This document shows, piece after piece, positions 1 through 10,981 of a DNA stretch of 11,165 nucleotides. How positions within the stretch are numbered: the first letter of the stretch is position 1; every line of letters begins with the position of its first letter. Location: contig JAHQXB010000167.1 of assembly GCA_029856435.1 (NCBI GenBank), positions 1 through 11,165 on the forward strand, given 5' to 3'. Both the position numbers and the translations under genes were made by a program. The notes beneath the pieces are model-generated. The model saw nothing but the letters and a program-made list of their open reading frames with translations, was not told the DNA's origin and made no database searches. The DNA is from Candidatus Jordarchaeia archaeon. GTDB taxonomy: Archaea; Asgardarchaeota; Jordiarchaeia; Jordiarchaeales; Jordiarchaeaceae.

Positions 1-306
1 ATATAGCTCCCTCACGAGTTCATAGGGAGCCTTCTGCTCCGCCCCTGTCTGGAAGTACCCGCCCACAAGAGTTGGGAGGATGTTTTTGTCCCACAATCCT
101 CTCTCGTGGGGAACTCCCTCCATCTTCAGGTACAGGTTGATTGCAGCGTTCGATTGCCTGTCTATTTTGAGTCCGCATGTTTTACACTCGAAGACTGCTC
201 CTCTCAGGTCTCTGTTTATGCACCCGCATCTGGAGCATCTTTGAGAGCTGAAAAGCGGTGGAAGATCTTTAACGTTGCAATCAACCTCCTTCAGCCTCTT
301 GACCAT
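1..306 (-). pseudogene. tnpB: 5'-truncated TnpB (IS200/IS605 family RNA-guided nuclease) relic: zinc ribbon + RuvC-III + C-terminal tail, open at the left window edge
   Basis: Manual translation of the - strand from ATG at 306 (preceded by GAGGGGAT; in-frame TGA just upstream): MVKRLKEVDCNVKDLPPLFSSQRCSRCGCINRDLRGAVFECKTCGLKIDRQSNAAINLYLKMEGVPHERGLWDKNILPTLVGGYFQTGAEQKAPYELVRELY. SQxCSxCG...FxCxxCG...DRxxNAAxN is the TnpB C-terminal signature. About 300 N-terminal residues of a normal TnpB are absent. Confidence 0.88.
6..30 (-). ncRNA. Hairpin inside the tnpB 3' coding tail, probably part of the overlapping omegaRNA scaffold
   Basis: Perfect 7-bp inverted repeat GCTCCCT (6-12) / AGGGAGC (24-30) with an 11-nt loop. 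omegaRNAs are known to overlap tnpB 3' ends. The rest of the RNA lies outside the window. Confidence 0.4.
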
Positions 307-565: not shown

Positions 566-578
566 TTAGGTGTGGATT

Positions 579-1415
579 ATGGCCCACATACATTTACCCG
601 ATGGAATTATGCCACTTGAATGGTGCGCTCTGTGGCTGGCGGTGACTGCAGGGATACTCCTTGTCAGCCTCTACATGATAAAAAGGAAGGGCGCTTCCCA
701 ACGCCAAATAGTGCTATTTGCTCTGCTCACCGGTCTCCTGTTTGTGTTAATGCAGATTCCGGTTCCAGCACCGCTGGGAGGCACACACCTGAACTTCACA
801 CCCCTTGCAGGCATACTGGCAGGTCCATGGTTTGGGGCGATAATTGTTTTCCTAATAAACGTTTTCGGGGCCGCAATGGGACACGGTGGGGTTACAGTTA
901 TCGGGGCGAATACTGTGGTTCTCTTTGTGGAGGTCTCCTTAGGTTTTGGACTGTATTTGGGCTTAAAGCGCTATTTTAAAAGGAGAGATGTTTCTGCGGG
1001 GTTGGCGACATTCACAGCTCTCATTGCTGGAACCTTTGTGGCAGTTACCATTATTACCCTTTCTGGTGGTTTCCAGCAATTTCAAACCGCACTGATTAAC
1101 TTTTTGGATAATCCTTTGATTCCCGTCCCGCAAATCTTTCCACATGAATTGGAGGCTTTGGGCGAAATGCTTTTGGGGTGGCTTCTGGAACCAGTCTTCG
1201 GCCCCATAATGGAAATAAACATTTACTACGCTGTTTTCAATGCGATTATAGCCAGTATGAACTCGTTCAGCGCCTTTTTGGCGTCTATGCTGCCGGTCAA
1301 TGCTGGCGTGGGATTGATTGAAGCTGTGGTAACTGGAGTAATAGTTGAAACTCTGGCTAAAACTAGGCCCGACATACTAGAAGAATCAGTCATAGTAGAG
1401 GACTCAGCCGAATAG
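579..1415 (+). CDS. cbiM: ECF-type Co2+/Ni2+ transporter substrate-binding component CbiM/NikM (278 aa)
   Basis: N-terminal MAHIHLPDG, GGTHLN (second metal His), GILAGPW, GHGGVTVIGAN and C-terminal IEAVVTG...KTRPDIL motifs; multiple TM segments. Start placed at ATG 579 (SD AGGTG 6 nt upstream) rather than GTG 570. Co versus Ni specificity not determinable. Confidence 0.92.
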   Translation: MAHIHLPDGIMPLEWCALWLAVTAGILLVSLYMIKRKGASQRQIVLFALLTGLLFVLMQIPVPAPLGGTHLNFTPLAGILAGPWFGAIIVFLINVFGAAMGHGGVTVIGANTVVLFVEVSLGFGLYLGLKRYFKRRDVSAGLATFTALIAGTFVAVTIITLSGGFQQFQTALINFLDNPLIPVPQIFPHELEALGEMLLGWLLEPVFGPIMEINIYYAVFNAIIASMNSFSAFLASMLPVNAGVGLIEAVVTGVIVETLAKTRPDILEESVIVEDSAE

Positions 1416-1502
1416 TTGCGATTACAAAATTTAAGTATGTTCAGCAAAGCTTTGATTGAGAGACCTGTTCATTTTCAATTTTTGGAATGGGAGGTGGCTG
1501 TT

Positions 1503-2243
1503 TTGGAGTTTCACTCATTGTTTCCTAACCCTATGATTGTTGATTATTATTCTGGCGGGGATTCAGTTTTGCATAGGTTGCACCCTGTGGTGAAGCTTGT
1601 TTTCTCCATAGCTATGGTTTTGACTACGGTGTATCTTCAGAACCTACGCCTAATCTTAGTTTTGTCAGTGTTGGTTTGGTTGCTGTTTTTTGTTGCCAGG
1701 CTACCTTTAAGGAGATTGCTGGTGTGGAGTGCTTTGCCCGCATTTTTTGTAGTTTCAATTGTAATATTTCTGCCGCTCATGGGGTATAGTTGGGAGTACA
1801 TTCTCAAAATTTTGGTTAAGGGAGTGACTGCTGCTTGGTACATGTTTCTACTGGTTCTGTCCACTCCCACCATGAGTTTGGGTAAATATGTATCTCGGAT
1901 TTTTCCCTCCTGGTTGTCCGACGCCTTTTTACTCTCACTGAGGTACATTTTCTACTTTTTTGGAGAGGCCCAGAAAACCTTTATTGCGGCTAACGCCAGG
2001 CAGGGAGAAGGCATTCCTTGGAGTAGAAAAATTAAACTTTTTGGATCCATGATAGTTAATCTGATTTTGAAGGGGTATGATAAGACCGAAAAAGTTTATG
2101 TGGCCATGAAGTCGAGGGGATACACAGGCCGCCTAAATCTGGTCTCAGAGGAAAAATTCAGGTGGAAAGACGCGGCGTACCTGGCACTGGCCACAGTTTT
2201 ACCCTTACTTTTAGTGTATTTGGAGAGGGTGGTAATATTATGA
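1503..2243 (+). CDS. cbiQ: ECF transporter transmembrane T component CbiQ/NikQ (246 aa)
   Basis: SVLHRLHPVVKL N-terminal motif and two coupling-helix XRX motifs (ANARQG, MKSRGY); hydrophobic. Start placed at TTG 1503 with SD GGAGGTG at 1490-1496; ATG 1533 is an alternative. Confidence 0.92.
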   Translation: MEFHSLFPNPMIVDYYSGGDSVLHRLHPVVKLVFSIAMVLTTVYLQNLRLILVLSVLVWLLFFVARLPLRRLLVWSALPAFFVVSIVIFLPLMGYSWEYILKILVKGVTAAWYMFLLVLSTPTMSLGKYVSRIFPSWLSDAFLLSLRYIFYFFGEAQKTFIAANARQGEGIPWSRKIKLFGSMIVNLILKGYDKTEKVYVAMKSRGYTGRLNLVSEEKFRWKDAAYLALATVLPLLLVYLERVVIL

Positions 2244-3103
2244 CTCTGGCAGTGAGGATGGAAGATGTAAAACACCGGTATCCCGATGGGACGATTTCAC
2301 TAAATGGTGTAGATTTGAGTGTAAAGGAAGGCGACTCGGTTGCCATACTGGGGGCAAACGGAAGTGGAAAAACCACTCTCCTCCTGCATTTGAATGGAAC
2401 CCTACACCCCTTCAGCGGCTCAGTTTACATCTACGGAGTAAAGATCACCAAGAAAAATGTGAACTATGCCCGAAGAAATGTGGGTATCGTTTTCCAAGAG
2501 TCCGACGACCAACTATTTATGCCGACGGTGCTGGATGACGTAGCCTTCGGGGCACTAAACACGAAACCCAGAGAGGAAGCCCTGGAAGAAACAGAGAAGA
2601 TACTGAAAAAATTGGGCCTCTACCAGTCTCGAAACAAGGTTCCACACTTCCTAAGCGGGGGCCAAAAAAAGCTGGTAGCATTAGCAGGCGTTTTGGTAAT
2701 GAAGCCCAAAATTCTAGTAATGGATGAGCCAACAGCAAACCTAGACTTCGAAACAAAGAACACGATAATCTCAATCATAAAAAGCTTACAGAAGGAGCAA
2801 AAATTAACACTAGTGTTTACAAGCTTCGACGTACAAATCATTCCCCAACTCGCAAACAAAGTGGCAATAATGAAGAAGGGAAAAGTAGTAGCATACGACG
2901 AAACGAGAAAAATTCTAACAGACGAAGAACTTCTCAGGGAAGCAGGAATAGAACCACCACCCTTCGTCCCACTAAGCAAAAAAATGGGATTCAGTAAAGT
3001 GCCCCTAACACTAGAAGAAGCAGAAGAAGAATTCCAAAAAATGGGGCTCCTCAGCAAAATATCCGAACAAAAAATATGCGTTAAACATACAAAAACTATC
3101 TAA
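2240..3103 (+). CDS. cbiO: ECF transporter ATPase CbiO/NikO (287 aa)
   Basis: Walker A GANGSGKT, Q-loop FQESDDQLF, signature LSGGQKK, Walker B/D-loop ILVMDEPTANLD, EcfA-type tail VPLTLEEA. ATG 2240 overlaps the cbiQ stop (ATGA). H-switch reads TSFD (see findings). Confidence 0.93.
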   Translation: MTLAVRMEDVKHRYPDGTISLNGVDLSVKEGDSVAILGANGSGKTTLLLHLNGTLHPFSGSVYIYGVKITKKNVNYARRNVGIVFQESDDQLFMPTVLDDVAFGALNTKPREEALEETEKILKKLGLYQSRNKVPHFLSGGQKKLVALAGVLVMKPKILVMDEPTANLDFETKNTIISIIKSLQKEQKLTLVFTSFDVQIIPQLANKVAIMKKGKVVAYDETRKILTDEELLREAGIEPPPFVPLSKKMGFSKVPLTLEEAEEEFQKMGLLSKISEQKICVKHTKTI

Positions 3104-3188: not shown

Positions 3189-4634
3189 TTATTCAAATCC
3201 CATTTTTCCGGGGTTCATTATGTTGTTTGGGTCGAGTGCCCTTTTGATGGCTTGCAGCACCCTGAATCCTTCTTCGCCGTATTCTTTCCTCATCCATTTT
3301 GCCCTTAGTAGACCAACGCCGTGATGGTGGGCTACCGAGGCACCTATTTTGTGGCAGGCTTCCAGGCCATCATTCCAGATTTCAGTGTACATTTGGAGAG
3401 CCTTCTCCCTGTCGGGCTCCTGGTAAGCAAATATTATGTATATGCTGCCTCCCTCAGGATAGAAGTGGGAGAAGTGGGACATTATGAAAACGTTGGGATG
3501 CCTGTCAGTTATAGCCTTCTTTACTCCATAGTAGAGGTCTTCCAGCTTGTCCCAAGTTGTCACCACATCTATTGTGTCGGCAACTAGGCCCATTTTTGTG
3601 CGGTCTGGATGAGGGAAATACATGTCGTACCTGTGGTTCCACCAATACTCGGCTAGCTCCTTTTCCACTTCCTTGCCCTCATTTTTCAAGCAGATTTTGG
3701 TGGTTTGTTTATCTTCAAAGTCCACCATCTCCCGCTCTCCATCAAAGGCTAAGATTAGGTAGCAAGCCCCCGGCGGTATTTGGAGTTTTCCCTTTAGTGT
3801 GAACACTGTGTCTAGCTCGTCGTAGAGCCTTATGACAGCTGGTCTGAGACCCTTCCTAAAGATTTGCCTTACTGTTTCTAGGCCTGTTTTGAGGTCTTTC
3901 ATTATGAATGCCTTAAATCTCCTCTCCTCGGGTAGGGGATGCAATCTTAAGGTTACCTCAGTAATTACTCCCAGTGTTCCCTCAGACCCTAGGAAGAGTT
4001 GGTTCAGATTGGGTCCTGTGGAGGTTCTGGGGGTGGTTTTCGTGCGTATAATTTCGCCGTTGGGTAGCACCACCTCCATGGAGATTACCATGTCCTCTAT
4101 TTTCCCATACTTGGAGGAGAGGGAACCCGCTGAGCGGCAGGCCACAAATCCCCCCAAGCAGGAAGTGTACTGGGAGGCGGGGAAGTGCCCCATGGTGAAT
4201 CCTCTCTTGTTTAGCTCCCTTTCCAGGTCCTCTCCAATTATTCCCGGCTGGGCGGTTACAGTGGCGGATACTTCGTCTATTCTCAGAATTTTGTCCATTT
4301 TTTTAACATCAAGAATTATTCCTCCATATATGGGTACAACCTGTCCACAGGCTCCAGCTCCCCCGGCAAAGGGGATAACGGGAATTTTCCTGATGTTGGC
4401 AAGCTTGAGAATCCTTGATACTTGCTCCTTATTTTCAACATGGACAATGTAGTCGGGTAGGGGTAATTTTTTGGCCAAGTCAATCCACATTAACACTTTG
4501 GGCCAAGCATCTCGAGAGTAGCAAATTTTGTCAGCCTCAGACACCGAGACATTTTCAGCCCCCACAATTTCCACGAGTTCATCATAAATCATCTTCTTCA
4601 CAAAATCGGACTCCAAATTTTTCTTCATCACCAT
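3189..4634 (-). CDS. Alkyl-dihydroxyacetone-phosphate synthase (AGPS/ADPS)-like FAD-linked protein (VAO/PCMH fold), about 480 aa
   Basis: PFAGGAG, GHFPAS...LGGFVACR, KYGKIEDMV, PRTSTGP...GSEGTLGVITE, PAVIRLYD, SHFYPEGGSIY, AHHHGVG and NPNNIMNPGK motifs. HHHGVG (not the GEHG of GlcD/D-lactate dehydrogenases) places it with AGPS. Start ATG 4634 or 4628 (SD GGGTGA fits 4628 better). Confidence 0.85.
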   Translation of the reverse strand: MVMKKNLESDFVKKMIYDELVEIVGAENVSVSEADKICYSRDAWPKVLMWIDLAKKLPLPDYIVHVENKEQVSRILKLANIRKIPVIPFAGGAGACGQVVPIYGGIILDVKKMDKILRIDEVSATVTAQPGIIGEDLERELNKRGFTMGHFPASQYTSCLGGFVACRSAGSLSSKYGKIEDMVISMEVVLPNGEIIRTKTTPRTSTGPNLNQLFLGSEGTLGVITEVTLRLHPLPEERRFKAFIMKDLKTGLETVRQIFRKGLRPAVIRLYDELDTVFTLKGKLQIPPGACYLILAFDGEREMVDFEDKQTTKICLKNEGKEVEKELAEYWWNHRYDMYFPHPDRTKMGLVADTIDVVTTWDKLEDLYYGVKKAITDRHPNVFIMSHFSHFYPEGGSIYIIFAYQEPDREKALQMYTEIWNDGLEACHKIGASVAHHHGVGLLRAKWMRKEYGEEGFRVLQAIKRALDPNNIMNPGKMGFE

Positions 4635-4735
4635 TCACCCTTTTCATAAACCCGCAACTTTACACAAGCAAAACAAACGTACGGAACAGGAGTTAAATGC
4701 GAGTATTTTGAGGATTTCTCTTTTTCTGTTACTGT

Positions 4736-5968
4736 TCATGCCCCGTATAATCTTTTCGCTAGGAATACCGTGTAGTCGAGGGCTTGGGTTTTGGACCTCT
4801 TTTTGAAAAGTGCCTGGTCTAATTGCACAAGGCAGAGGGGGCAGGGAGTGACCACATTATGCACGTTTAATTTCTGTATTTCTTCAATTTCTTTCCTGAC
4901 TATCTCTCTTGATATTCGGGGATTGTAGAGGTTGAGTAGTCCTCCTGCCCCGCAGCACCTTCCCGGTTCCTCCAGTCTTTTGAACTCCACTTGGGGAAGC
5001 ATTTTTAGGAGTTCCTCTGCATAGTCTGTGGTGTACTTGCCCACGTGTCTGTCTAGGTGGCAGGGCGAGTGCAGAGTTACACTAACATTTTCAGGATGAT
5101 TGGGAACCAGTTTTCCAAATTTTTCCTTTCCAAAATCCTCCAAAATGTATTCAAGGAGATGCTTTACCTCGAAATCGCCACTACACCTGTTCTTTATTTC
5201 TGCCAGAGTAGCGGTGCAACCCGCACAGGTGGTGACAACTATTTTGGCACCCACACTCTTCACTTTTTCCAGAAAGTCCTTTTGCAACCTATCGGCGGTT
5301 TCTGAGTCACCTATAAGTATTGAGGGAAGGCTACAACATTTTAGGTCTGGCAATAGGGTGTAGTCAACCCCCATTTTCTCCATAACCAGCTTAGCACTCT
5401 CCCTAATTTCTGGAAGAAGATTCTCCGCCTGACACCCTGGAAAATAGAGAATCTCAGCATTGGGTTTTACTTTGTCCGGCAAGTAGGGAAGCCCCAATAT
5501 TTCCAGTCTTCCCCTGGCACTCTCCACCCTCGCCTCTTCATCCATTGGTTCAAATGCTAAACCGTAATTACTTAGGTTCTCAAGCATAGCCTGAAAGTTT
5601 GCAGGCACCAATTCTTTTCTCTGCTTAAATAGTTTTGATCGGATGAGGCTTACAACCTTTGGCACGGGCACATTCTTGGAGCAGATTTCTTGGCACCGCC
5701 CACACAGAGTGCAAAGATACACCACATCTTTGGCCTTCCAGAATTCCCTAACGGTTCTTGAGAGTTCGCTGGTTATGCTTCGGGGACCAGAGTAGGATTC
5801 ATGTTGGAGAACCTCAAGTATGGGGCAAACGGCCAAGCATAATCCGCAGTTCTGACATGCCTCAACCTTTTTGTATGTTTCCTCCTCCTCTGGCCTCATG
5901 AGTATTATATCTTCCTCCCGCAGTATTCCCTCTATGTGTTCTAACTCTTTTTCCGGCATTGCACCCAT
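4736..5968 (-). CDS. glpC: GlpC-type Fe-S subunit (2x[4Fe-4S] ferredoxin motifs + two CCG domains), 410 aa
   Basis: CQNCGLCLAVCP and CTLCGRCQEICS; CCG-domain motifs YFPGC/CCSLP/TTCAGC and HSPCH/CCGAGG/TPCPLC; directly downstream of glpB; SD GGTGG. Confidence 0.88.
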   Translation of the reverse strand: MGAMPEKELEHIEGILREEDIILMRPEEEETYKKVEACQNCGLCLAVCPILEVLQHESYSGPRSITSELSRTVREFWKAKDVVYLCTLCGRCQEICSKNVPVPKVVSLIRSKLFKQRKELVPANFQAMLENLSNYGLAFEPMDEEARVESARGRLEILGLPYLPDKVKPNAEILYFPGCQAENLLPEIRESAKLVMEKMGVDYTLLPDLKCCSLPSILIGDSETADRLQKDFLEKVKSVGAKIVVTTCAGCTATLAEIKNRCSGDFEVKHLLEYILEDFGKEKFGKLVPNHPENVSVTLHSPCHLDRHVGKYTTDYAEELLKMLPQVEFKRLEEPGRCCGAGGLLNLYNPRISREIVRKEIEEIQKLNVHNVVTPCPLCLVQLDQALFKKRSKTQALDYTVFLAKRLYGA

Positions 5969-5981
5969 CCACCACCCTAAA

Positions 5982-7316
5982 CTAACTTGACGCCTTAAAT
6001 CCGGCCAGGTAGCCTGTTGCTATGGCTACGCCCATTCCGCTCTTTTCCGCCATAAAATTGTATCCGGAGAGTACGGCTCCCGCAGCGTATAGGTTGCTGT
6101 ACACTGGTTCACCCCTTTCTGATAGGGGCTGAAAATTTTCATCCACAAGGATTCCACTGGAAAAAAGCTGGTGTCCACCTTTGGGAAACACGTTTCTACT
6201 AAGCAGCTTTTCTAAGTAGACCTCCTCAAGGTTTAAGCCGTCACTGCTGTAGACCGGCAGATTGAATATTGACTCTCTAACAAAATCCTTTTCTTCCCTT
6301 AGGCCTCCCCCAAGAAAGCCTCCTGAGGCCAGTATATACACGTCGGCTTCAATTTCGACTATTTTTCTGCCAATCTCCACCTTCAAGCTTTTCACATTTT
6401 TGTCAAAGTTTGCATCCAAAACTTTGTATCCCCGCTGAACACTAACGCCAGCCTTTTGGGCCCACTTTTCAAGACTTTTAACCAAACGGTATCCGGGAAC
6501 TGAGGGGGGAAAAGAAGCCAGTTCGAAAACATTGGCTCCAGTGGCTTCCGCAAGAGTTTTAATGTTTTCCTCGGGAAATTGAACTCCACATGTGGGGATA
6601 GCCAAGTGTTCTGCAGAACCTACAACCTTTTGTAGACTCCGCCCAATCTTTTCCAGAGCTTCAGAATCGTCCATCTTTCTTGCAATTTCAATTGCCAAAA
6701 TGTCTCCCCTACTCTCAAGACCCGGAACATCTATGTAAGCGTGACTCACAGACTTGGGCTTAATCCCAAGACGGGGCAAAATATCCCATAGAGATTGGGC
6801 GCAGAAACGAGAGTCATAGTCGGGAAACCCCTTAACCCCCACAAGCACCAGTGAAGAACCGTCCAACCTCCTCAAATCACCACTATACATTGTGGAGGGG
6901 CAGAGGCAGGTAGGCTTAAATGTGCCCACAAAATTGGTCACCAAAACATTTTCATCAAGGGAACCCATAAAATTGACACCCACAGACTTCATACCCTCCA
7001 CAAAAAATTCCAAGGCTCTTCTAACGTTTCTTTCCGATTCTCGGCCCCTCTTTTCCGGCTCAGCCTTCCCGCCGCCCCCAATAATTGAGTAGGGATGATT
7101 CTTAACCTTTTCCGCTATGGTACGCACACCCTCAGAAGCAGAAACAAACATATGATTGGGGGGAAAGTATCCCGCCACATCAACTACACCCGATGATTGT
7201 ATAGTAGCTCCAGAACCCTTTTCAGCAGCCAGAACTTTAAGCCCCTTTTCAGCCGCCTTTATTGCAGCTGTCAAGCCAGCTACCCCGGCGCCTATAACGC
7301 AAACATCCACCTTCAC
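5982..7316 (-). CDS. glpB: Anaerobic glycerol-3-phosphate dehydrogenase subunit B-like flavoprotein (444 aa)
   Basis: DVCVIGAGVAGLTAA, SSGVVDV, PPSVPGYRL, LASGGFLGGGL, GILVDENFQP, NLYAAGAVLSGY...SGMGVAIATG match GlpB. Start placed at GTG 7316 (SD GGAGG about 7 nt upstream, just after the glpA stop) rather than 7397. Confidence 0.92.
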   Translation of the reverse strand: MKVDVCVIGAGVAGLTAAIKAAEKGLKVLAAEKGSGATIQSSGVVDVAGYFPPNHMFVSASEGVRTIAEKVKNHPYSIIGGGGKAEPEKRGRESERNVRRALEFFVEGMKSVGVNFMGSLDENVLVTNFVGTFKPTCLCPSTMYSGDLRRLDGSSLVLVGVKGFPDYDSRFCAQSLWDILPRLGIKPKSVSHAYIDVPGLESRGDILAIEIARKMDDSEALEKIGRSLQKVVGSAEHLAIPTCGVQFPEENIKTLAEATGANVFELASFPPSVPGYRLVKSLEKWAQKAGVSVQRGYKVLDANFDKNVKSLKVEIGRKIVEIEADVYILASGGFLGGGLREEKDFVRESIFNLPVYSSDGLNLEEVYLEKLLSRNVFPKGGHQLFSSGILVDENFQPLSERGEPVYSNLYAAGAVLSGYNFMAEKSGMGVAIATGYLAGFKASS

Positions 7317-7317
7317 C

Positions 7318-8967
7318 TCAATCCCTCCTCCAGAAGTCTGGTAGAACATCATAATTTGCAACTCCAGCGTATATTGCCTGGTTGATTTCCTCCTCACTCA
7401 CCTGGTCCCCTCGCAGTAGGACACATTTTCCCTTCCACCTCTCTTGGGCGAACTCCAAGGCATCTTTGTGAGCTTGTTCAGGACTGAGATTAAGCTCATC
7501 GGCAATTATGGCAAGGGCTTTAAAGTTGCAGAAGGTGCTCTGGCAGGGACCCATTCCCAGTCTCACCCTCCTGCGAAGGTCGCTCAGACTGGTTGCAAAC
7601 TCGTTTCGTAAAGAGTACCTTATCTCAGCTTCAGTTACAGACTCACACCTGCAAATGGTGGACTTGTACTCAGGATTCTCCCGAGTGAGCTTCAAGACTT
7701 CCGGAGTGTTGGAGCCGTGCCTGCTCGCTATTCTCCCTACTGTGTGTGTGGGCATGTTATATTCTTCGGACCACAATTCTATGTCCACTTCGCCCTCTGC
7801 GCCGGGCAGGGGTTCTATGTGTGTTCTACACTCAGCTTTTATGCCTAGCTTCTTACAGATGAGGTCGGTCATCTTTTCCGCCATTACCCTATAGATAACC
7901 AGTTTTCCTCCCTCAAAGCTCACAATTCCCTTAACTCCATCGCGTTCCTCGTGGTCTACCAGTTTAAAGTTGCGGGTGGCCTCATCTTCAGTTATCCACC
8001 ATTCAGGGAGCATGGGCCGCACACCACACATGGTTCTTATAACTCGGGCTTCCCTAATGGAGGGCACAGCCACCTCAATACTTGAAATGAGGTACTCCAC
8101 ATCATCGTAGCTGGTTTCGGCATCGTCCGGGCTTCCGAAAATGTCCCAAGCGGTTGTGCCCAGAACAGTGGTGTCGAAGTGTGGAAAGAGGTAAACTGAT
8201 CTTCCATCCAGAGCCCTGCAGACCACTCCCACCCCGGTTACTCTCCGATCAAAAACAACGTGGGAGCCCTTGTTTAGTCTGAGTGGTTGGTCTATGCCCG
8301 CCATTTTGGAAATCCGGGATACCCAAGGACCGGCGCAGTTGGCGACAAACTTGCCGTAGATTTCTTCAACTTTCCCGGTTTTTTTGTCCTTTGCTATTAC
8401 GCCTTCTACTCTGTCGCCGTTTCTTATGATGTCTATGACTTCAGTATAGTTGCGAACCACTGCGCCGTGGTTCTTGGCTGATAGTGCGTTTAGCATGCAG
8501 AGTCTGAAGGGGTCGATGAACATTTCGTCGAAGTAGGCTGCGAGGAGTATCTTGTCGCTTAGTTTGGGTTCTATTTTTCTGGCTTCCTCCTTGCTTAGCA
8601 GCATAATGGGGCTAGCTCCCCGCAGGGCTGTATACTTGCTGTAGTCTGTTTTTTTCGAAGTTCGGGCTTTGAGGTCGATTTCGTTAATGATAGCAGTGAT
8701 GATTGGGAGGCGGAAAACAATGTGTTTGGCTATTTTTTGCAGGTACACGACCTCCTTGGTGCACAGTTCAACCATTTCCGGCTCATCCAGATACTTTACT
8801 CCTCCAGATATCATGCCGGCGCAGGCACCAGCGGTTCCTGAACCAAAGTCATTCCTCTCAAGAAGAATGGTTTTCAATCCGCGCATAGCGCAGTCTCGGG
8901 CAGTACCTGCCCCAGAAGAGCCACCACCAATTACGATAACGTCGTACTCTTCCTTCAAACAAAACAT
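7318..8967 (-). CDS. glpA: Anaerobic glycerol-3-phosphate dehydrogenase subunit A-like flavoprotein with C-terminal BFD-like [2Fe-2S] domain (about 549 aa); substrate-site motifs altered
   Basis: DVIVIGGGSSGAGTARDCAMRGL, DPFRL, NCAGPW, NKGSH, GVRP, GGKL, and ICRCE...LRRRVRLGMGPCQSTFC (four Cys of the GlpA BFD domain). Start uncertain: ATG 8967, TTG 8958 (SD GGAG) or TTG 8988. Confidence 0.92.
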   Translation of the reverse strand: MFCLKEEYDVIVIGGGSSGAGTARDCAMRGLKTILLERNDFGSGTAGACAGMISGGVKYLDEPEMVELCTKEVVYLQKIAKHIVFRLPIITAIINEIDLKARTSKKTDYSKYTALRGASPIMLLSKEEARKIEPKLSDKILLAAYFDEMFIDPFRLCMLNALSAKNHGAVVRNYTEVIDIIRNGDRVEGVIAKDKKTGKVEEIYGKFVANCAGPWVSRISKMAGIDQPLRLNKGSHVVFDRRVTGVGVVCRALDGRSVYLFPHFDTTVLGTTAWDIFGSPDDAETSYDDVEYLISSIEVAVPSIREARVIRTMCGVRPMLPEWWITEDEATRNFKLVDHEERDGVKGIVSFEGGKLVIYRVMAEKMTDLICKKLGIKAECRTHIEPLPGAEGEVDIELWSEEYNMPTHTVGRIASRHGSNTPEVLKLTRENPEYKSTICRCESVTEAEIRYSLRNEFATSLSDLRRRVRLGMGPCQSTFCNFKALAIIADELNLSPEQAHKDALEFAQERWKGKCVLLRGDQVSEEEINQAIYAGVANYDVLPDFWRRD

Positions 8968-8995
8968 CTCCAAAAATTTGAAGACCAAGCCACAA

Positions 8996-9003
8996 TTAAT
9001 AAG
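8996..9003 (-). promoter_or_regulatory. Candidate TATA box for the glp operon
   Basis: - strand CTTATTAA about 30 nt upstream of ATG 8967, matching archaeal TATA spacing. Confidence 0.3.
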
Positions 9004-9170
9004 ATTACAAAGTGTTGATTAGGCCTTTTTTTAGCCTCCAACCGTTTGGGCGGGAGCTGTATGGTAGTGCTCCCATCTGTTATTAAATGTAGTTCCTTAA
9101 AAGTTTAATCGCCGACTTTCGAACCGCTATTTTTGGATCCGAAAAGCATGTTTGGCTTTTTTCAGTCTTT

Positions 9171-9180
9171 TTGATGCCTC
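9171..9180 (+). repeat. Left copy of 10-bp target-site duplication TTGATGCCTC
   Basis: Identical to 9290-9299 and abuts the left terminal inverted repeat exactly. Confidence 0.85.
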
Positions 9181-9289
9181 GGTGATGTAGAATCGTTCGA
9201 TTTCGCCTCAAAAAGGGGGGTGTTTATAGTGCTTCTTTCACGATTTGGAGCTTTATTAGGGGGATGAAATCGAATAAATCTACATCACC
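9181..9289. mobile_element. 109-bp MITE (non-autonomous miniature inverted-repeat element)
   Basis: Left TIR GGTGATGTAGAATCGTTCGATTTC (9181-9204) vs reverse complement of 9266-9289 GGTGATGTAGATTTATTCGATTTC: 21/24 identical, outer 11 bp perfect. Flanked by an exact 10-bp direct repeat; no coding capacity. Confidence 0.88.
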
Positions 9290-9299
9290 TTGATGCCTC
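9290..9299 (+). repeat. Right copy of 10-bp target-site duplication TTGATGCCTC
   Basis: Identical to 9171-9180 and abuts the right terminal inverted repeat exactly. Confidence 0.85.
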
Positions 9300-9300
9300 A

Positions 9301-9318
9301 AAGAAATGATTTATAAAA
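9301..9318 (+). promoter_or_regulatory. Candidate BRE + TATA box for the membrane-protein gene
   Basis: Purine-rich AAGAAATGA followed by TTTATAAAA (9310-9318), predicting a transcription start near 9340, upstream of ATG 9374. Confidence 0.5.
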
Positions 9319-9373
9319 GGGTAAGGACGTAATAGTTTTGAGGGTGTTGATTGTTTGGGTTGAGGGTTTTGAG

Positions 9374-10981
9374 ATGAGGAAATCTTCGGGTTTGGCGGTA
9401 ATTTTTTTCGGCCTGCTGCTCATTGTCGGCATTTATGGTATTAGTGTTAGTAGGCATACAGACCTTGTTTGGGGAGGCTTCAAGTTTCCCTCATCGGCCT
9501 TCATGTATCATAGTCAGTTCGGACAGTTTCAAGAAGTCACTTATCCGCTTCTCATTGGTTCTTACACTTTTGGTGGAGCTAGTGTTTTTCCCGTTTTTAG
9601 TGGTGGAAAATCCATATTTCTGGTTCCCGGAACTTATAGTGGTTGTCTCGAGCTCAGTCTAGTATCTAGCGCTGAAGTTAATGTTTCAATCTATAGTTTT
9701 GAGGAGTTTATGGCGAGTCTTTTTTGGGGCGGAGGCACCCCCCTATTCTCCGCAAGTAATGTGGCGGGAATCTCTCATTCCCAGCCATTCACAAGTGGGT
9801 TGCTCGGCGTAGCTTCTAAAGTTTTTTTGGATACTCAGCTGTTTCCCTCACCCTCCCTCACAGCCACCACCCTACCGCCCCTAGTGGTCTCCATAGAGAA
9901 TCAGGGTGTCGGGGACGCCTTTGTTAGCGTTAACTCTTATGTTTGGGGCTACCACATAGTCCAGAACTCCCAGTACCTATTTTCATGGGCGATACTAATT
10001 TTCTCAGCCATATTCACCATTCTGGCGCTGATAAGTGAGGTGGTCCCCAGAATAACAAGTGAAGATATTTACGAAGGAAGCACTGTTAAGGGAGCCCTCA
10101 AGATTGCTCTGCGTGAACCCATCCGGGTTGTCCTGCCCTATACTCTTCTCCTCGCTCCCATTCTTTATGTGGCAAATTACAATATTTGGGTGGCGGGAAA
10201 AGGTCTACCCTCTTTTCAATCCATAAACACCCTATTTGCGGGCTCCTATATTAGTACGGCTCCGGTGCCCTTCCCCCTCGAATTTGCGCTAATGGGCAGC
10301 ACAGTTATTTTTCTCATACCTCTAATTTATTTGGCTCAAATTGTGGTTTACTCACGCGTGGGAGCAATACATTTCGAAGTCGCTGAAATTGAGCCCAAAC
10401 AAGGTTTAGGAGGAGCAATCAGCACCTACCTAGCGTTGGGAGTAGTACTCTCAGCAATTTTACTATACGCTAACTTCCAGTTTTTCACCAGTATGGCTGC
10501 AATCGTCTCCTACTATGAACTGTACAAGTTTGGATTCATAGCACTTATTCTGGCACTTGCAATCCCCACCGCAACGTTTCTCTTCTCCATAGGGTACACC
10601 CTAAAAGTTATTTCCGCATCAGCAGATAGGGACGAGAGAAGCCCAGAAGAAATAGTTTCGGAAATGTGGCAACCCAAAAGAAGCCTCCTAAAAACATACA
10701 TAACAGGCTCCTTCCTACCGGTTATAGGCTTCATTCTGACTATCATGGTAGCATATTTTCTCAACCCCTTCTGTTACCCCACACCCTACATTCTCTCCCC
10801 AATAGTTGAAAACAGCGTAAACACCCTTCTCCTCTCAGGCTCCCTAATAATCAGTGCCACACTCAACCTCTTCCTAATCTTCATCCCCATAATGCAAACC
10901 ATAGTCTACTTCAGACTAAAAGGGGAACCAATACAGAAACCAATGTGGAAAACACTAGGCCGCCCATATCCCCCTCCCTAA
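9374..10981 (+). CDS. Hypothetical multi-pass membrane protein (about 535 aa): N-terminal signal/anchor, about 170-aa beta-rich extracytoplasmic domain, C-terminal multi-TM domain
   Basis: Long ORF with MRKSSG + hydrophobic stretch, a Ser/Val/Phe-rich soluble region, then roughly 6-7 hydrophobic helices ending ...IPIMQTIVYFRLKGE. ATG 9374 (GAGG upstream) preferred to TTG 9338. No confident family assignment. Confidence 0.8.
   Translation: MRKSSGLAVIFFGLLLIVGIYGISVSRHTDLVWGGFKFPSSAFMYHSQFGQFQEVTYPLLIGSYTFGGASVFPVFSGGKSIFLVPGTYSGCLELSLVSSAEVNVSIYSFEEFMASLFWGGGTPLFSASNVAGISHSQPFTSGLLGVASKVFLDTQLFPSPSLTATTLPPLVVSIENQGVGDAFVSVNSYVWGYHIVQNSQYLFSWAILIFSAIFTILALISEVVPRITSEDIYEGSTVKGALKIALREPIRVVLPYTLLLAPILYVANYNIWVAGKGLPSFQSINTLFAGSYISTAPVPFPLEFALMGSTVIFLIPLIYLAQIVVYSRVGAIHFEVAEIEPKQGLGGAISTYLALGVVLSAILLYANFQFFTSMAAIVSYYELYKFGFIALILALAIPTATFLFSIGYTLKVISASADRDERSPEEIVSEMWQPKRSLLKTYITGSFLPVIGFILTIMVAYFLNPFCYPTPYILSPIVENSVNTLLLSGSLIISATLNLFLIFIPIMQTIVYFRLKGEPIQKPMWKTLGRPYPPP

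Follow-up and report, generated by a model that had tools for sequence, protein, structure and literature searches.

An Asgard archaeal genome (Jordarchaeia/Freyarchaeia) carries the gene for a flavoprotein resembling AGPS, the eukaryotic ether-lipid enzyme (alkyl-dihydroxyacetonephosphate synthase, AGPS/ADPS, EC 2.5.1.26), beside a set of glpABC-like genes. Does this locus serve ether-lipid metabolism, as an earlier note on this DNA had proposed, or another reaction? The comparisons described below speak less for ether-lipid synthesis than for a redox enzyme whose substrate would be a small compound resembling glycerol phosphate.

Organisation of the locus

The window analysed here is a stretch of 11,165 nucleotides. 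Four of its genes lie one after the other on the minus strand: glpA′ (7318–8967), glpB′ (5982–7316), glpC′ (4736–5968) and the gene for an AGPS-signature FAD-linked oxidase (3189–4634), which encodes a prokaryote-sized protein of 481 amino acids. Gene starts were set by alignment to orthologs from a genome of the same genus (G038). The alignment placed the start of glpA′ at ATG 8967 and that of glpB′ at GTG 7316, 1 nt past the glpA′ stop codon and preceded by a GGAGGAGG stretch. For glpC′ the start is ATG 5968, 13 nt past the stop codon of glpB′; for the AGPS-like gene it is ATG 4634. With the starts corrected, the gap of about 100 bp before the AGPS-like gene in the earlier note measures 101 nt as read from the sequence (4635–4735, minus strand); it contains a T-rich stretch and a GGGTGA motif a few nucleotides upstream of the ATG. 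Because the corresponding spacers in orthologous operons are 5–40 nt long, glpC′ and the AGPS-like gene are likely to be co-transcribed. A scan of the operon for sigma-70 promoters and terminators, a procedure that is not applicable to archaea, returned counts at the level of shuffled sequence.

The remainder of the window encodes CbiM/Q/O, a TnpB fragment and a hydrophobic 547-residue open reading frame without annotation. Pfam and TIGRFAM profile matches agreed with the open reading frames and domains described previously, and a search for genes for a kinase, including glycerol kinase, a facilitator or GlpT found none in the window, again as described.

A divergent GlpABC set

The three Glp-type proteins have the composition of a three-subunit GlpABC enzyme, and their gene order is that of E. 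coli glpABC. GlpA′, the FAD dehydrogenase subunit, combines DAO and DAO_C domains with a Fer2_BFD [2Fe-2S] domain. The flavoprotein subunit GlpB′ scored 204 bits against TIGR03378, over the cut-off of 174. GlpC′ is an HdrD/GlpC-like iron–sulfur subunit with a 4Fe-4S dicluster (Fer4_8), two CxxCxxCxxxC cysteine motifs, located at residues 38 and 86, and two CCG domains. It is 48–49 % identical to GlpC′ of loci L012 and L013, and ~30 % identical to the second CCG protein of the same loci.

GlpA′ scored 441 bits against TIGR03377, under the cut-off of 553, whereas the GlpA of a separate FGGY kinase–GlpABC set on another contig of the same genome (C39) reached 610 bits. The two paralogs also differ in the H-S-G-A-R-Y motif: the C39 copy keeps LHSGARY, within the sequence NHGLLHSGARY that it shares with the E. 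coli protein, while GlpA′ has ISGGVKY, within CAGMISGGVKY. In the Asgard GlpA′ proteins, Ser and Lys occupy the positions of the conserved His and Arg of GlpA/GlpD. We take His50 and Arg54 of GlpD to be substrate residues; a literature search on GlpD substrate residues found nothing useful. The claim of the earlier note that the altered GlpA site points to a non-standard substrate holds in so far as the window GlpA′ is a divergent paralog that is likely to use such a substrate.

The closest known counterpart is the GlpK–GlpABC pathway of E. coli and haloarchaea, which has the same three subunits and domains and, like the full Asgard operon described below, an upstream kinase. This pathway has been predicted in Freyarchaeia/Atabeyarchaeia (PMC11291895). 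The window set differs from it in the low profile score and the two replaced residues of GlpA′, and in an operon kinase whose model scores point away from GlpK (see below).

Conservation of the linkage

Is the proximity of the two gene types meaningful? Among 151 Asgard genomes surveyed, 39 carried the divergent GlpA′, and in 35 of these 39 an AGPS-like gene was located 3–6 kb away. In 33 of the 35, both genes were on the same strand, with a spacing that fits glpB plus glpC. The linkage spans four families and recurs in several bacterial loci, in bacterial clades of the tree. Since it recurs in this way, the adjacency is not chance, and the neighbourhood survey confirms that the coupling of GlpABC to an AGPS-like protein is conserved. 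One could still suppose that the flavoprotein gene is independent and stands beside glpABC by accident, given the 101-nt spacer in the window and the fact that about half of the Asgard genomes with an AGPS-like gene have no GlpA′ nearby. However, the same-strand recurrence across families and in bacteria, together with the short spacers of the orthologous operons, makes this very improbable.

The fuller form of the Asgard operon is FGGY kinase–GlpA′B′C′–AGPS-like–CCG′, a six-gene order common to Thorarchaeota, Atabeyarchaeia, Jordarchaeales and the same-genus genome G038. The window holds a rearranged remnant of it, and the orthologs of the kinase (contig C101; 84.5 % to the G038 kinase) and of CCG′ (contig C19; 78.5 % to the G038 CCG′) are found elsewhere in the genome. 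A comparison of C101 and C19 with the ends of the window contig revealed no overlap, so the split of the operon is not attributable to assembly alone. On contigs from other assemblies that are 95–98 % identical (L010 and L011), the locus has the same CbiO neighbour, and on L010 also the same neighbouring 547-residue open reading frame. Half of the sampled Asgard genomes encode a member of the prokaryote-sized AGPS-like subfamily, as do E. coli (YgcU) and many bacteria of the PVC group, which comprises Planctomycetes, Verrucomicrobia and their relatives.

Signature residues and domains of the flavoprotein

The flavoprotein has the VAO-type FAD and cap domains of AGPS (PF01565, 132 bits; PF02913, 144 bits). 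Its best matches among solved structures were AGPS from Dictyostelium (2uuu, 215 bits) and guinea pig (4bby, 195 bits), followed by D-lactate dehydrogenase (161 bits). A published attempt at an AGPS phylogeny reports too little phylogenetic signal; the comparison with true AGPS was made by PDB alignments and signature residues. Arg269, Tyr399 and His436–438 of the window protein align with Arg419, Tyr578 and His615–617 of guinea-pig AGPS. Of the 20 paralogs that the genome encodes, the window protein alone has this signature, and among 73 family members the Arg is invariant and the Tyr is present in 70. The description of the flavoprotein as AGPS-like therefore holds at the residue level.

Other features set the window protein apart from AGPS. 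AGPS proteins are 584–658 residues long and include an N-terminal gating domain, which is missing here: residues 53–478 align to residues 131–583 of Dictyostelium AGPS, leaving ~52 residues before the FAD domain compared with ~130 in 2uuu and ~204 in 4bby. A gate-keeping helix in this domain is said to control entry to the channel for the aliphatic chain (PMC3509576). In addition, the second catalytic Arg of AGPS (Arg447 in Dictyostelium, Arg515 in guinea pig) is not kept. Its counterpart is His342/Pro343, at a site that varies across the window family, although this part of the alignment falls in a loop, which leaves some uncertainty on the mismatch.

D-2-hydroxyacid dehydrogenases of the GlcD/Dld/LDHD type carry a metal signature of His, His and Glu-His. 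In the window protein, Tyr and His-His stand at these positions, and a plain D-lactate or glycolate dehydrogenase was rejected on account of the missing signature; three other paralogs in the genome do carry it (C5, C55 and C70). A literature search found no assayed member of the prokaryotic AGPS-like subfamily, and a search for agpS/Rv3107c returned nothing useful.

Electron-transfer partners and kinases

Across 67 archaeal and bacterial loci, a CCG iron–sulfur gene directly follows the AGPS-like gene in 59, and in all ten Asgard operons compared a CCG/HdrD-like gene adjoins the flavoprotein gene. In the window, the sole adjoining iron–sulfur gene is glpC′, with the dedicated CCG′ ortholog on C19. 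The arrangement follows the same logic as GlcDEF glycolate oxidase and D-lactate dehydrogenase/HdrD-type pairs, in which an FAD-linked oxidase is followed by a GlcF/HdrD-like protein. Seven loci contain flavoprotein–flavoprotein–CCG tandem sets resembling GlcDEF, and tandem flavoproteins as in GlcD–GlcE occur in some bacterial loci; the metal signature described above distinguishes the GlcDEF enzymes from the window flavoprotein. AGPS, in contrast, requires no acceptor, whereas members of the window family are tied to sugar kinases and to a partner of the Fe-S or ETF kind.

An FGGY kinase gene was found near the AGPS-like gene in 25 loci, and the Asgard operon kinase scores nearer to the models for xylulokinase and AI-2 kinase than to that for GlpK. 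In the PVC group and Bacteroidota, the loci are clusters of the soluble-sugar kind and encode a PfkB kinase, an IolB-like protein, a class II aldolase, an isomerase-like protein and MFS transporters. In seven bacterial loci, a DAGK/YegS-type lipid kinase gene follows the AGPS-like/CCG pair; for that bacterial clade, this is a hint that the substrate is a lipid. An aldehyde dehydrogenase gene lies downstream in Thorarchaeota and in locus L014.

E. coli YgcU is 32 % identical to the window flavoprotein over its full length and keeps the Arg, the Tyr and the His triad. Its gene is surrounded by genes for ETF alpha/beta, an ETF-QO-like protein, a G3P-antiterminator-family protein, an FGGY kinase and a sugar transporter. 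The K-12 cluster (ygcNOPQRSUW, yqcE, ygcE) thus likewise combines an FGGY kinase (YgcE) with electron-transfer proteins; it has the ETF and ETF-QO-like proteins in place of CCG and is without a GlpAB-type enzyme. To our knowledge, E. coli makes no ether lipids. A literature search for ygcU found no functional study.

Lipid-pathway genes in the genome

The genome, which is 97.8 % complete, was searched for the acyltransferase and acyl-CoA reductase that ether-lipid synthesis would call for. PF01553, the GNPAT/PlsC-type acyltransferase profile, had zero matches; the same profile matched 10 of 14 control genomes, including all 10 bacteria. The fatty acyl reductase profile PF07993 gave only weak matches of 22–34 bits, a level reached by all 14 controls and not convincing as a reductase. 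The AGPS partners FAR and GNPAT were thus not found. The genome does hold a G1P dehydrogenase-like gene and the gene for GGGPS, which belong to the standard route to archaeal lipids, and the archaeon therefore probably makes G1P lipids.

A probable dehydrogenase for a glycerol-phosphate-like compound

On balance, we lean towards the AGPS-like protein being the flavin subunit of a dehydrogenase for a small phosphorylated glycerol- or DHAP-type compound. The four window genes form the centre of an operon that is conserved in Asgard archaea and has been rearranged in this species. In this model, the AGPS-like protein would be the flavin subunit that oxidises the substrate in a two-component dehydrogenase, and the CCG′ ortholog, which now lies on C19, and possibly also the adjoining GlpC′ would act as its Fe-S partner. 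The kinase would phosphorylate a small polyol or glycerol derivative. GlpA′B′C′ and the AGPS-like/CCG pair would each take electrons from the phosphorylated compound or its DHAP-type product, and the electrons would pass through the HdrD-like iron–sulfur subunits to the acceptor pool of the cell.

We infer both the dehydrogenase activity and the small, soluble, glycerol-phosphate- or DHAP-like substrate from gene content, signature residues, linkage and partners. The regular CCG neighbour, the FGGY kinases, the GlcDEF-like tandem sets, the sugar-cluster contexts, YgcU with its ETF genes and the separate GlpABC set on C39 all speak for a dehydrogenase; gene context is unable to name its substrate. 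Against a dehydrogenase stand the retained catalytic Arg, Tyr and His triad of AGPS, the position of the dedicated CCG′ away from the window and the bacterial loci with a lipid kinase. The AGPS reaction is a redox-neutral exchange and its catalytic residues are kept, so exchange or hydrolysis on a C1-substituted DHAP would also be chemically plausible for the flavoprotein.

Such chemistry underlies the catabolic variant of the earlier note, read here as an operon that degrades scavenged 1-O-alkylglycerols by running the AGPS-type flavin-adduct reaction in reverse: the kinase would yield alkyl-glycerol-phosphate, GlpA′B′C′ would oxidise it to alkyl-DHAP, and the AGPS-like protein with water would release the alcohol and DHAP. 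Besides the conserved AGPS residues, the changed GlpA′ site, the DAGK/YegS-type kinases and the downstream aldehyde dehydrogenases fit this scheme, and since C2 of alkyl-DHAP is not chiral, either glycerol stereochemistry could give rise to this compound. But the kinase linked to these genes belongs to the FGGY type for soluble sugars, hydrolytic exchange requires no Fe-S or ETF partner and yet one is nearly always there, and the contexts in the PVC group and E. coli are sugar-like. With the AGPS-only domain for chain entry and the Arg447/Arg515 equivalent also missing, we consider this route unlikely. A true AGPS making sn-1-alkyl-DHAP for bacterial/eukaryote-type G3P ether lipids in an archaeon, as the earlier note also proposed, would be in keeping with the signature residues, the AGPS structures as best matches and the G3P/DHAP interconversion that GlpABC could provide. 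This is highly improbable given the acyltransferase and reductase searches, the genes for G1P lipids, the absent gating domain, the redox partners and catabolic contexts across the family, and the E. coli homolog with the same signature; a published survey of the plasmalogen pathway also did not find it in Archaea (bioRxiv 10.1101/2025.10.10.681575). The overarching idea of an anaerobic glycerol-ether-lipid route is one we hold to be quite doubtful. In it, the kinase, the altered GlpABC and the AGPS-type enzyme would turn alkylglycerols, among them the isoprenoid glyceryl ethers of archaea, into DHAP and alcohol by way of alkyl-DHAP, or would carry out these steps in reverse. The reverse direction would mean that G3P-type ether lipids are built in archaeal relatives of eukaryotes. 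The most constant partners of the family, an Fe-S subunit for electron transfer and an FGGY kinase of the soluble-sugar type, support neither ether-lipid synthesis nor scavenging.

An alternative that retains the redox role is that the AGPS-like/CCG pair oxidises sn-glycerol-1-phosphate or another D-polyol phosphate to DHAP while GlpA′B′C′ takes the sn-3 (L) form, which would channel both glycerophosphate stereoisomers into glycolysis. The characterised VAO/GlcD-type flavoenzymes known to us act on D-2-hydroxy substrates and the DAO/GlpD-type ones on L-forms, and by analogy the presence of both types in one operon, each with its own Fe-S subunit, would suit such a division of labour. The probable G1P lipids of this archaeon, with the G1P dehydrogenase-like and GGGPS genes behind them, are consistent with it too, as is an AGPS active site that binds the DHAP moiety (PMC3509576). 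Yet one stereospecific kinase in the operon would supply one enantiomer only, NAD-dependent G1P dehydrogenase is reversible and a gene resembling it is already present, and the bacterial pair sits in hexose- or inositol-like clusters. This assignment of enantiomers appears rather unlikely, and we retain the dehydrogenase for a glycerol- or DHAP-type compound as the preferred reading.

Implications for the AGPS-like subfamily

Automatic annotation and KEGG-based reconstructions label proteins with the AGPS signature 'alkyl-DHAP synthase', and this enzyme is listed among those recovered in a reconstruction of LUCA (PMC11383801). For Asgard archaea, the label encourages conclusions on ether lipids and on the lipid divide. 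An ether-lipid route in either direction would, if true, tie Asgard archaea to the ether-lipid enzyme of eukaryotes; on the evidence presented here, a redox function is the more likely one for the prokaryote-sized AGPS-like subfamily. YgcU makes E. coli a tractable test bed for this subfamily. Its substrate, once identified, would fill a widespread gap in the glycerol and polyol metabolism of anaerobes and would reveal the ancestral chemistry of the eukaryotic ether-lipid enzyme.

Gene content of the contig and rearrangement of the operon

The window is the complete contig C80 (11,165 bases) of a 3.54 Mb Jordarchaeia/Freyarchaeia (Asgard) genome (G000) that is 97.8% complete. Its minus strand carries a GlpA-type flavoprotein with DAO, DAO_C and BFD [2Fe-2S] domains (7318–8967), a GlpB-type flavoprotein (5982–7316), a GlpC/HdrD-like iron–sulfur protein with two CxxCxxCxxxC motifs and two CCG domains (4736–5968), and a 481-residue FAD-linked oxidase (3189–4634; PF01565 and PF02913) resembling alkyl-dihydroxyacetonephosphate synthase (AGPS), the animal ether-lipid enzyme. 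Start codons (8967, 7316, 5968 and 4634) were placed by alignment with the same-genus orthologs, and the spacers measure 1, 13 and 101 nt in this order. A CbiM–CbiQ–CbiO ECF transporter (570–3103, plus strand) is convergent to the operon, and a TnpB/Cas12f-like C-terminal fragment (1–306, minus strand) lies at the contig edge. At the other end, a stretch called a MITE in the earlier note (8989–9337) adjoins a divergent, single-copy hydrophobic ORF of 547 residues (9338–10981, plus strand) without a Pfam or NCBIfam match. Kinase, facilitator and GlpT genes are all absent from these 11,165 nt, so the earlier observation of four co-directional genes lacking these companions was correct as stated.

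The fuller operon encodes an FGGY kinase, GlpA'B'C' (primes mark the divergent operon version), the AGPS-like protein and a dedicated second CCG iron–sulfur protein, CCG'. In the window's species this operon is rearranged. The position of the FGGY kinase in a same-genus complete genome (G038) is filled by the MITE and the 547-residue ORF; the kinase ortholog (84.5% identity to its G038 counterpart) is found on contig C101, and the CCG' ortholog (78.5%) on C19, next to DNA-repair genes. Three features are particular to this window: the scattering of the operon, whose kinase and CCG' genes lie on other contigs; its coexistence with a GlpABC set on contig C39 whose GlpA passes the curated model; and the genome-content test of the AGPS pathway.

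Conservation of the linkage

Of 151 Asgard genomes searched, 76 have a flavoprotein ortholog (E ≤ 1e-110) and 39 the divergent GlpA' (E ≤ 1e-125). Linkage to the flavoprotein gene holds in 35 of the 39 GlpA'-bearing genomes; these 35 span four families, Thorarchaeota and Atabeyarchaeia among them. In 33 of these the pair shares a strand with a gap of about 2.7–5 kb, leaving room for glpB and glpC, with additional DNA in one genome; one pair lies on opposite strands 6 kb apart, and the remaining linkage is inferred, in a fragmented assembly, from the contig of the flavoprotein (L009), which bears glpB-glpC-AGPS-like. All six components of the fuller operon were present in the ten loci examined, in identical order in nine, the tenth (L098) being split into two divergent units. 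In a family tree rooted on the genome's own D-lactate-dehydrogenase-like paralogs, GlpA/B-linked flavoproteins occur in at least five clades, including bacterial ones. The linkage reported in the earlier note is thus strongly conserved, and adjacency without meaning is a very improbable explanation of it.

The flavoprotein resembles AGPS but lacks its gating domain

The closest solved structures are AGPS from Dictyostelium (215 bits) and guinea pig (195 bits), followed by mitochondrial D-lactate dehydrogenase (161 bits). In structure–sequence alignments, Arg269, Tyr399 and His436–438 correspond to guinea-pig Arg419, Tyr578 and the His615–617 loop, where D-lactate dehydrogenase has Glu-His; the Arg419His and Tyr578Phe mutants are entries 4bc7 and 4bca. 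These residues are conserved in the family (Arg 73/73, Tyr 70/73, last His 71/73). Among the 20 FAD-linked-oxidase paralogs of the genome, the AGPS signature is confined to the window protein, and three others show the His/His/Glu-His metal signature of D-2-hydroxyacid dehydrogenases. The protein is therefore AGPS-like at the level of sequence signature. By contrast, Dictyostelium Arg447 (guinea-pig Arg515), reported important for catalysis, is a variable His/Pro in the family. About 52 residues precede the FAD domain, compared with about 130 and 204 in the two AGPS structures, so the flavoprotein is missing the domain unique to AGPS, in which a gate-keeping helix governs access to the aliphatic-chain channel (PMC3509576).

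The roughly 20 paralogs (PF01565/PF02913-type) mostly adjoin their own CCG/HdrD-like iron–sulfur gene, some as tandem pairs, on contigs including C5, C7, C22, C25, C30, C62, C68, C70, C82, C146, C158, C160 and C170. Together they form a large expansion of flavin/Fe–S dehydrogenase modules, and their active-site residues vary.

Electron-transfer partners and kinases in the wider family

In a sample of 67 archaeal and bacterial loci, a CCG iron–sulfur gene follows the flavoprotein in 59, two tandem flavoproteins plus CCG reproduce the GlcD-GlcE-GlcF pattern in seven, and an FGGY kinase is nearby in 25, mostly directly upstream. These kinases match xylulokinase and AI-2-kinase models best, not GlpK. 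Soluble-sugar catabolism genes surround the trio in Planctomycetota, Verrucomicrobiota, Lentisphaerota, Kiritimatiellia and Bacteroidota, including those for a PfkB kinase, IolB-like and isomerase-like proteins, a class II aldolase and MFS transporters.

Over its full length, E. coli K-12 YgcU is 32% identical to the window protein, and it retains the Arg, Tyr and HHH. Its cluster encodes electron-transfer proteins of another kind (ETF alpha/beta, YgcQ/R, and ETF-QO-like YgcN), together with the FGGY kinase YgcE, an SDR, sugar-type transporters and YgcP, of the glycerol-3-phosphate-responsive antiterminator family (211 bits). E. coli is not known to make ether lipids. The AGPS reaction is redox-neutral and proceeds without an external acceptor (PMC3509576), so the chief argument for regarding the short subfamily as dehydrogenases is its near-universal electron-transfer partner.

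Other neighbours were also recorded. Seven bacterial loci (L025, L028, L032, L035, L046, L068, L087) have a gene for a DAGK/YegS-type lipid kinase downstream of the AGPS-like one, after the CCG gene wherever one was called; their flavoproteins, where the ORF was called whole, bear an N-terminal extension (507–553 residues). This is the sole lipid-flavoured context observed. In Thorarchaeota and one other Asgard lineage, CCG' is followed by genes for a radical SAM protein of the MSMEG_0568 family (277 bits, cut-off 304), a GNAT protein and a 555-residue aldehyde dehydrogenase (L095:13155–16535, L014:10570–16899 and other Thorarchaeota loci); elsewhere, this radical SAM/GNAT pairing is known in bacteria, from the Nit1C-type cluster. 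On a Helarchaeota contig, B12-binding radical SAM and fucose-isomerase-like genes follow glpB-glpC-AGPS-like (L040:3302–4720).

A second GlpABC set and the substrate of the operon

Contig C39 carries an FGGY kinase followed by GlpA, GlpB and GlpC. On the xylulokinase model this kinase reaches 413 bits, above cut-off; it is also the best GlpK-model match of the genome at 376 bits, below that cut-off. The C39 GlpA passes its curated model (610 bits; cut-off 553) and shares the E. coli motifs, whereas the window GlpA is divergent (441 bits; motifs CAGMISGGVKY and LVIYR), making the window operon a paralogous system. Scores and motifs indicate that its substrate is probably other than plain sn-G3P. 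The non-standard substrate proposed earlier is thereby supported, but with no pointer to lipids. An extra GlpABC operon in Freyarchaeia has been published, with the AGPS-like gene unmentioned (PMC11291895). Directly upstream of the C39 operon lies the gene for a 201-residue gelsolin-repeat protein, which counts as a eukaryote-like signature protein (G000:C39:31131–31736; L091:9132–9737).

Ether-lipid synthesis, the headline of the earlier note, is highly improbable: neither an acyltransferase nor a convincing fatty acyl reductase partner was found. PF01553 (PlsC/GNPAT) has no match in the 97.8% complete genome, the same search having matched all ten bacterial control genomes, and PF07993 gave weak matches (22–34 bits), a level attained by every control. 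The genome also carries G1P-dehydrogenase-like and GGGPS genes, which cover two steps of the customary archaeal lipid pathway. A 2025 preprint reports finding no plasmalogen pathway in Archaea (bioRxiv 10.1101/2025.10.10.681575). Alkylglycerol catabolism via alkyl-DHAP could draw on the retained AGPS residues, the DAGK-type kinases of the seven bacterial loci and the altered GlpA' site, and we consider it unlikely; that the operon might encode an enantiomer-specific glycerol-1-phosphate dehydrogenase, an idea drawn purely from analogy, seems to us quite doubtful.

In the best-supported reading, which we hold to be somewhat probable, the AGPS-like protein provides the flavin subunit for a flavin/iron–sulfur dehydrogenase so far uncharacterised. 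The operon kinase would make a small phosphorylated compound of the glycerol or DHAP type, on which this dehydrogenase would act alongside the divergent GlpA'B'C'.
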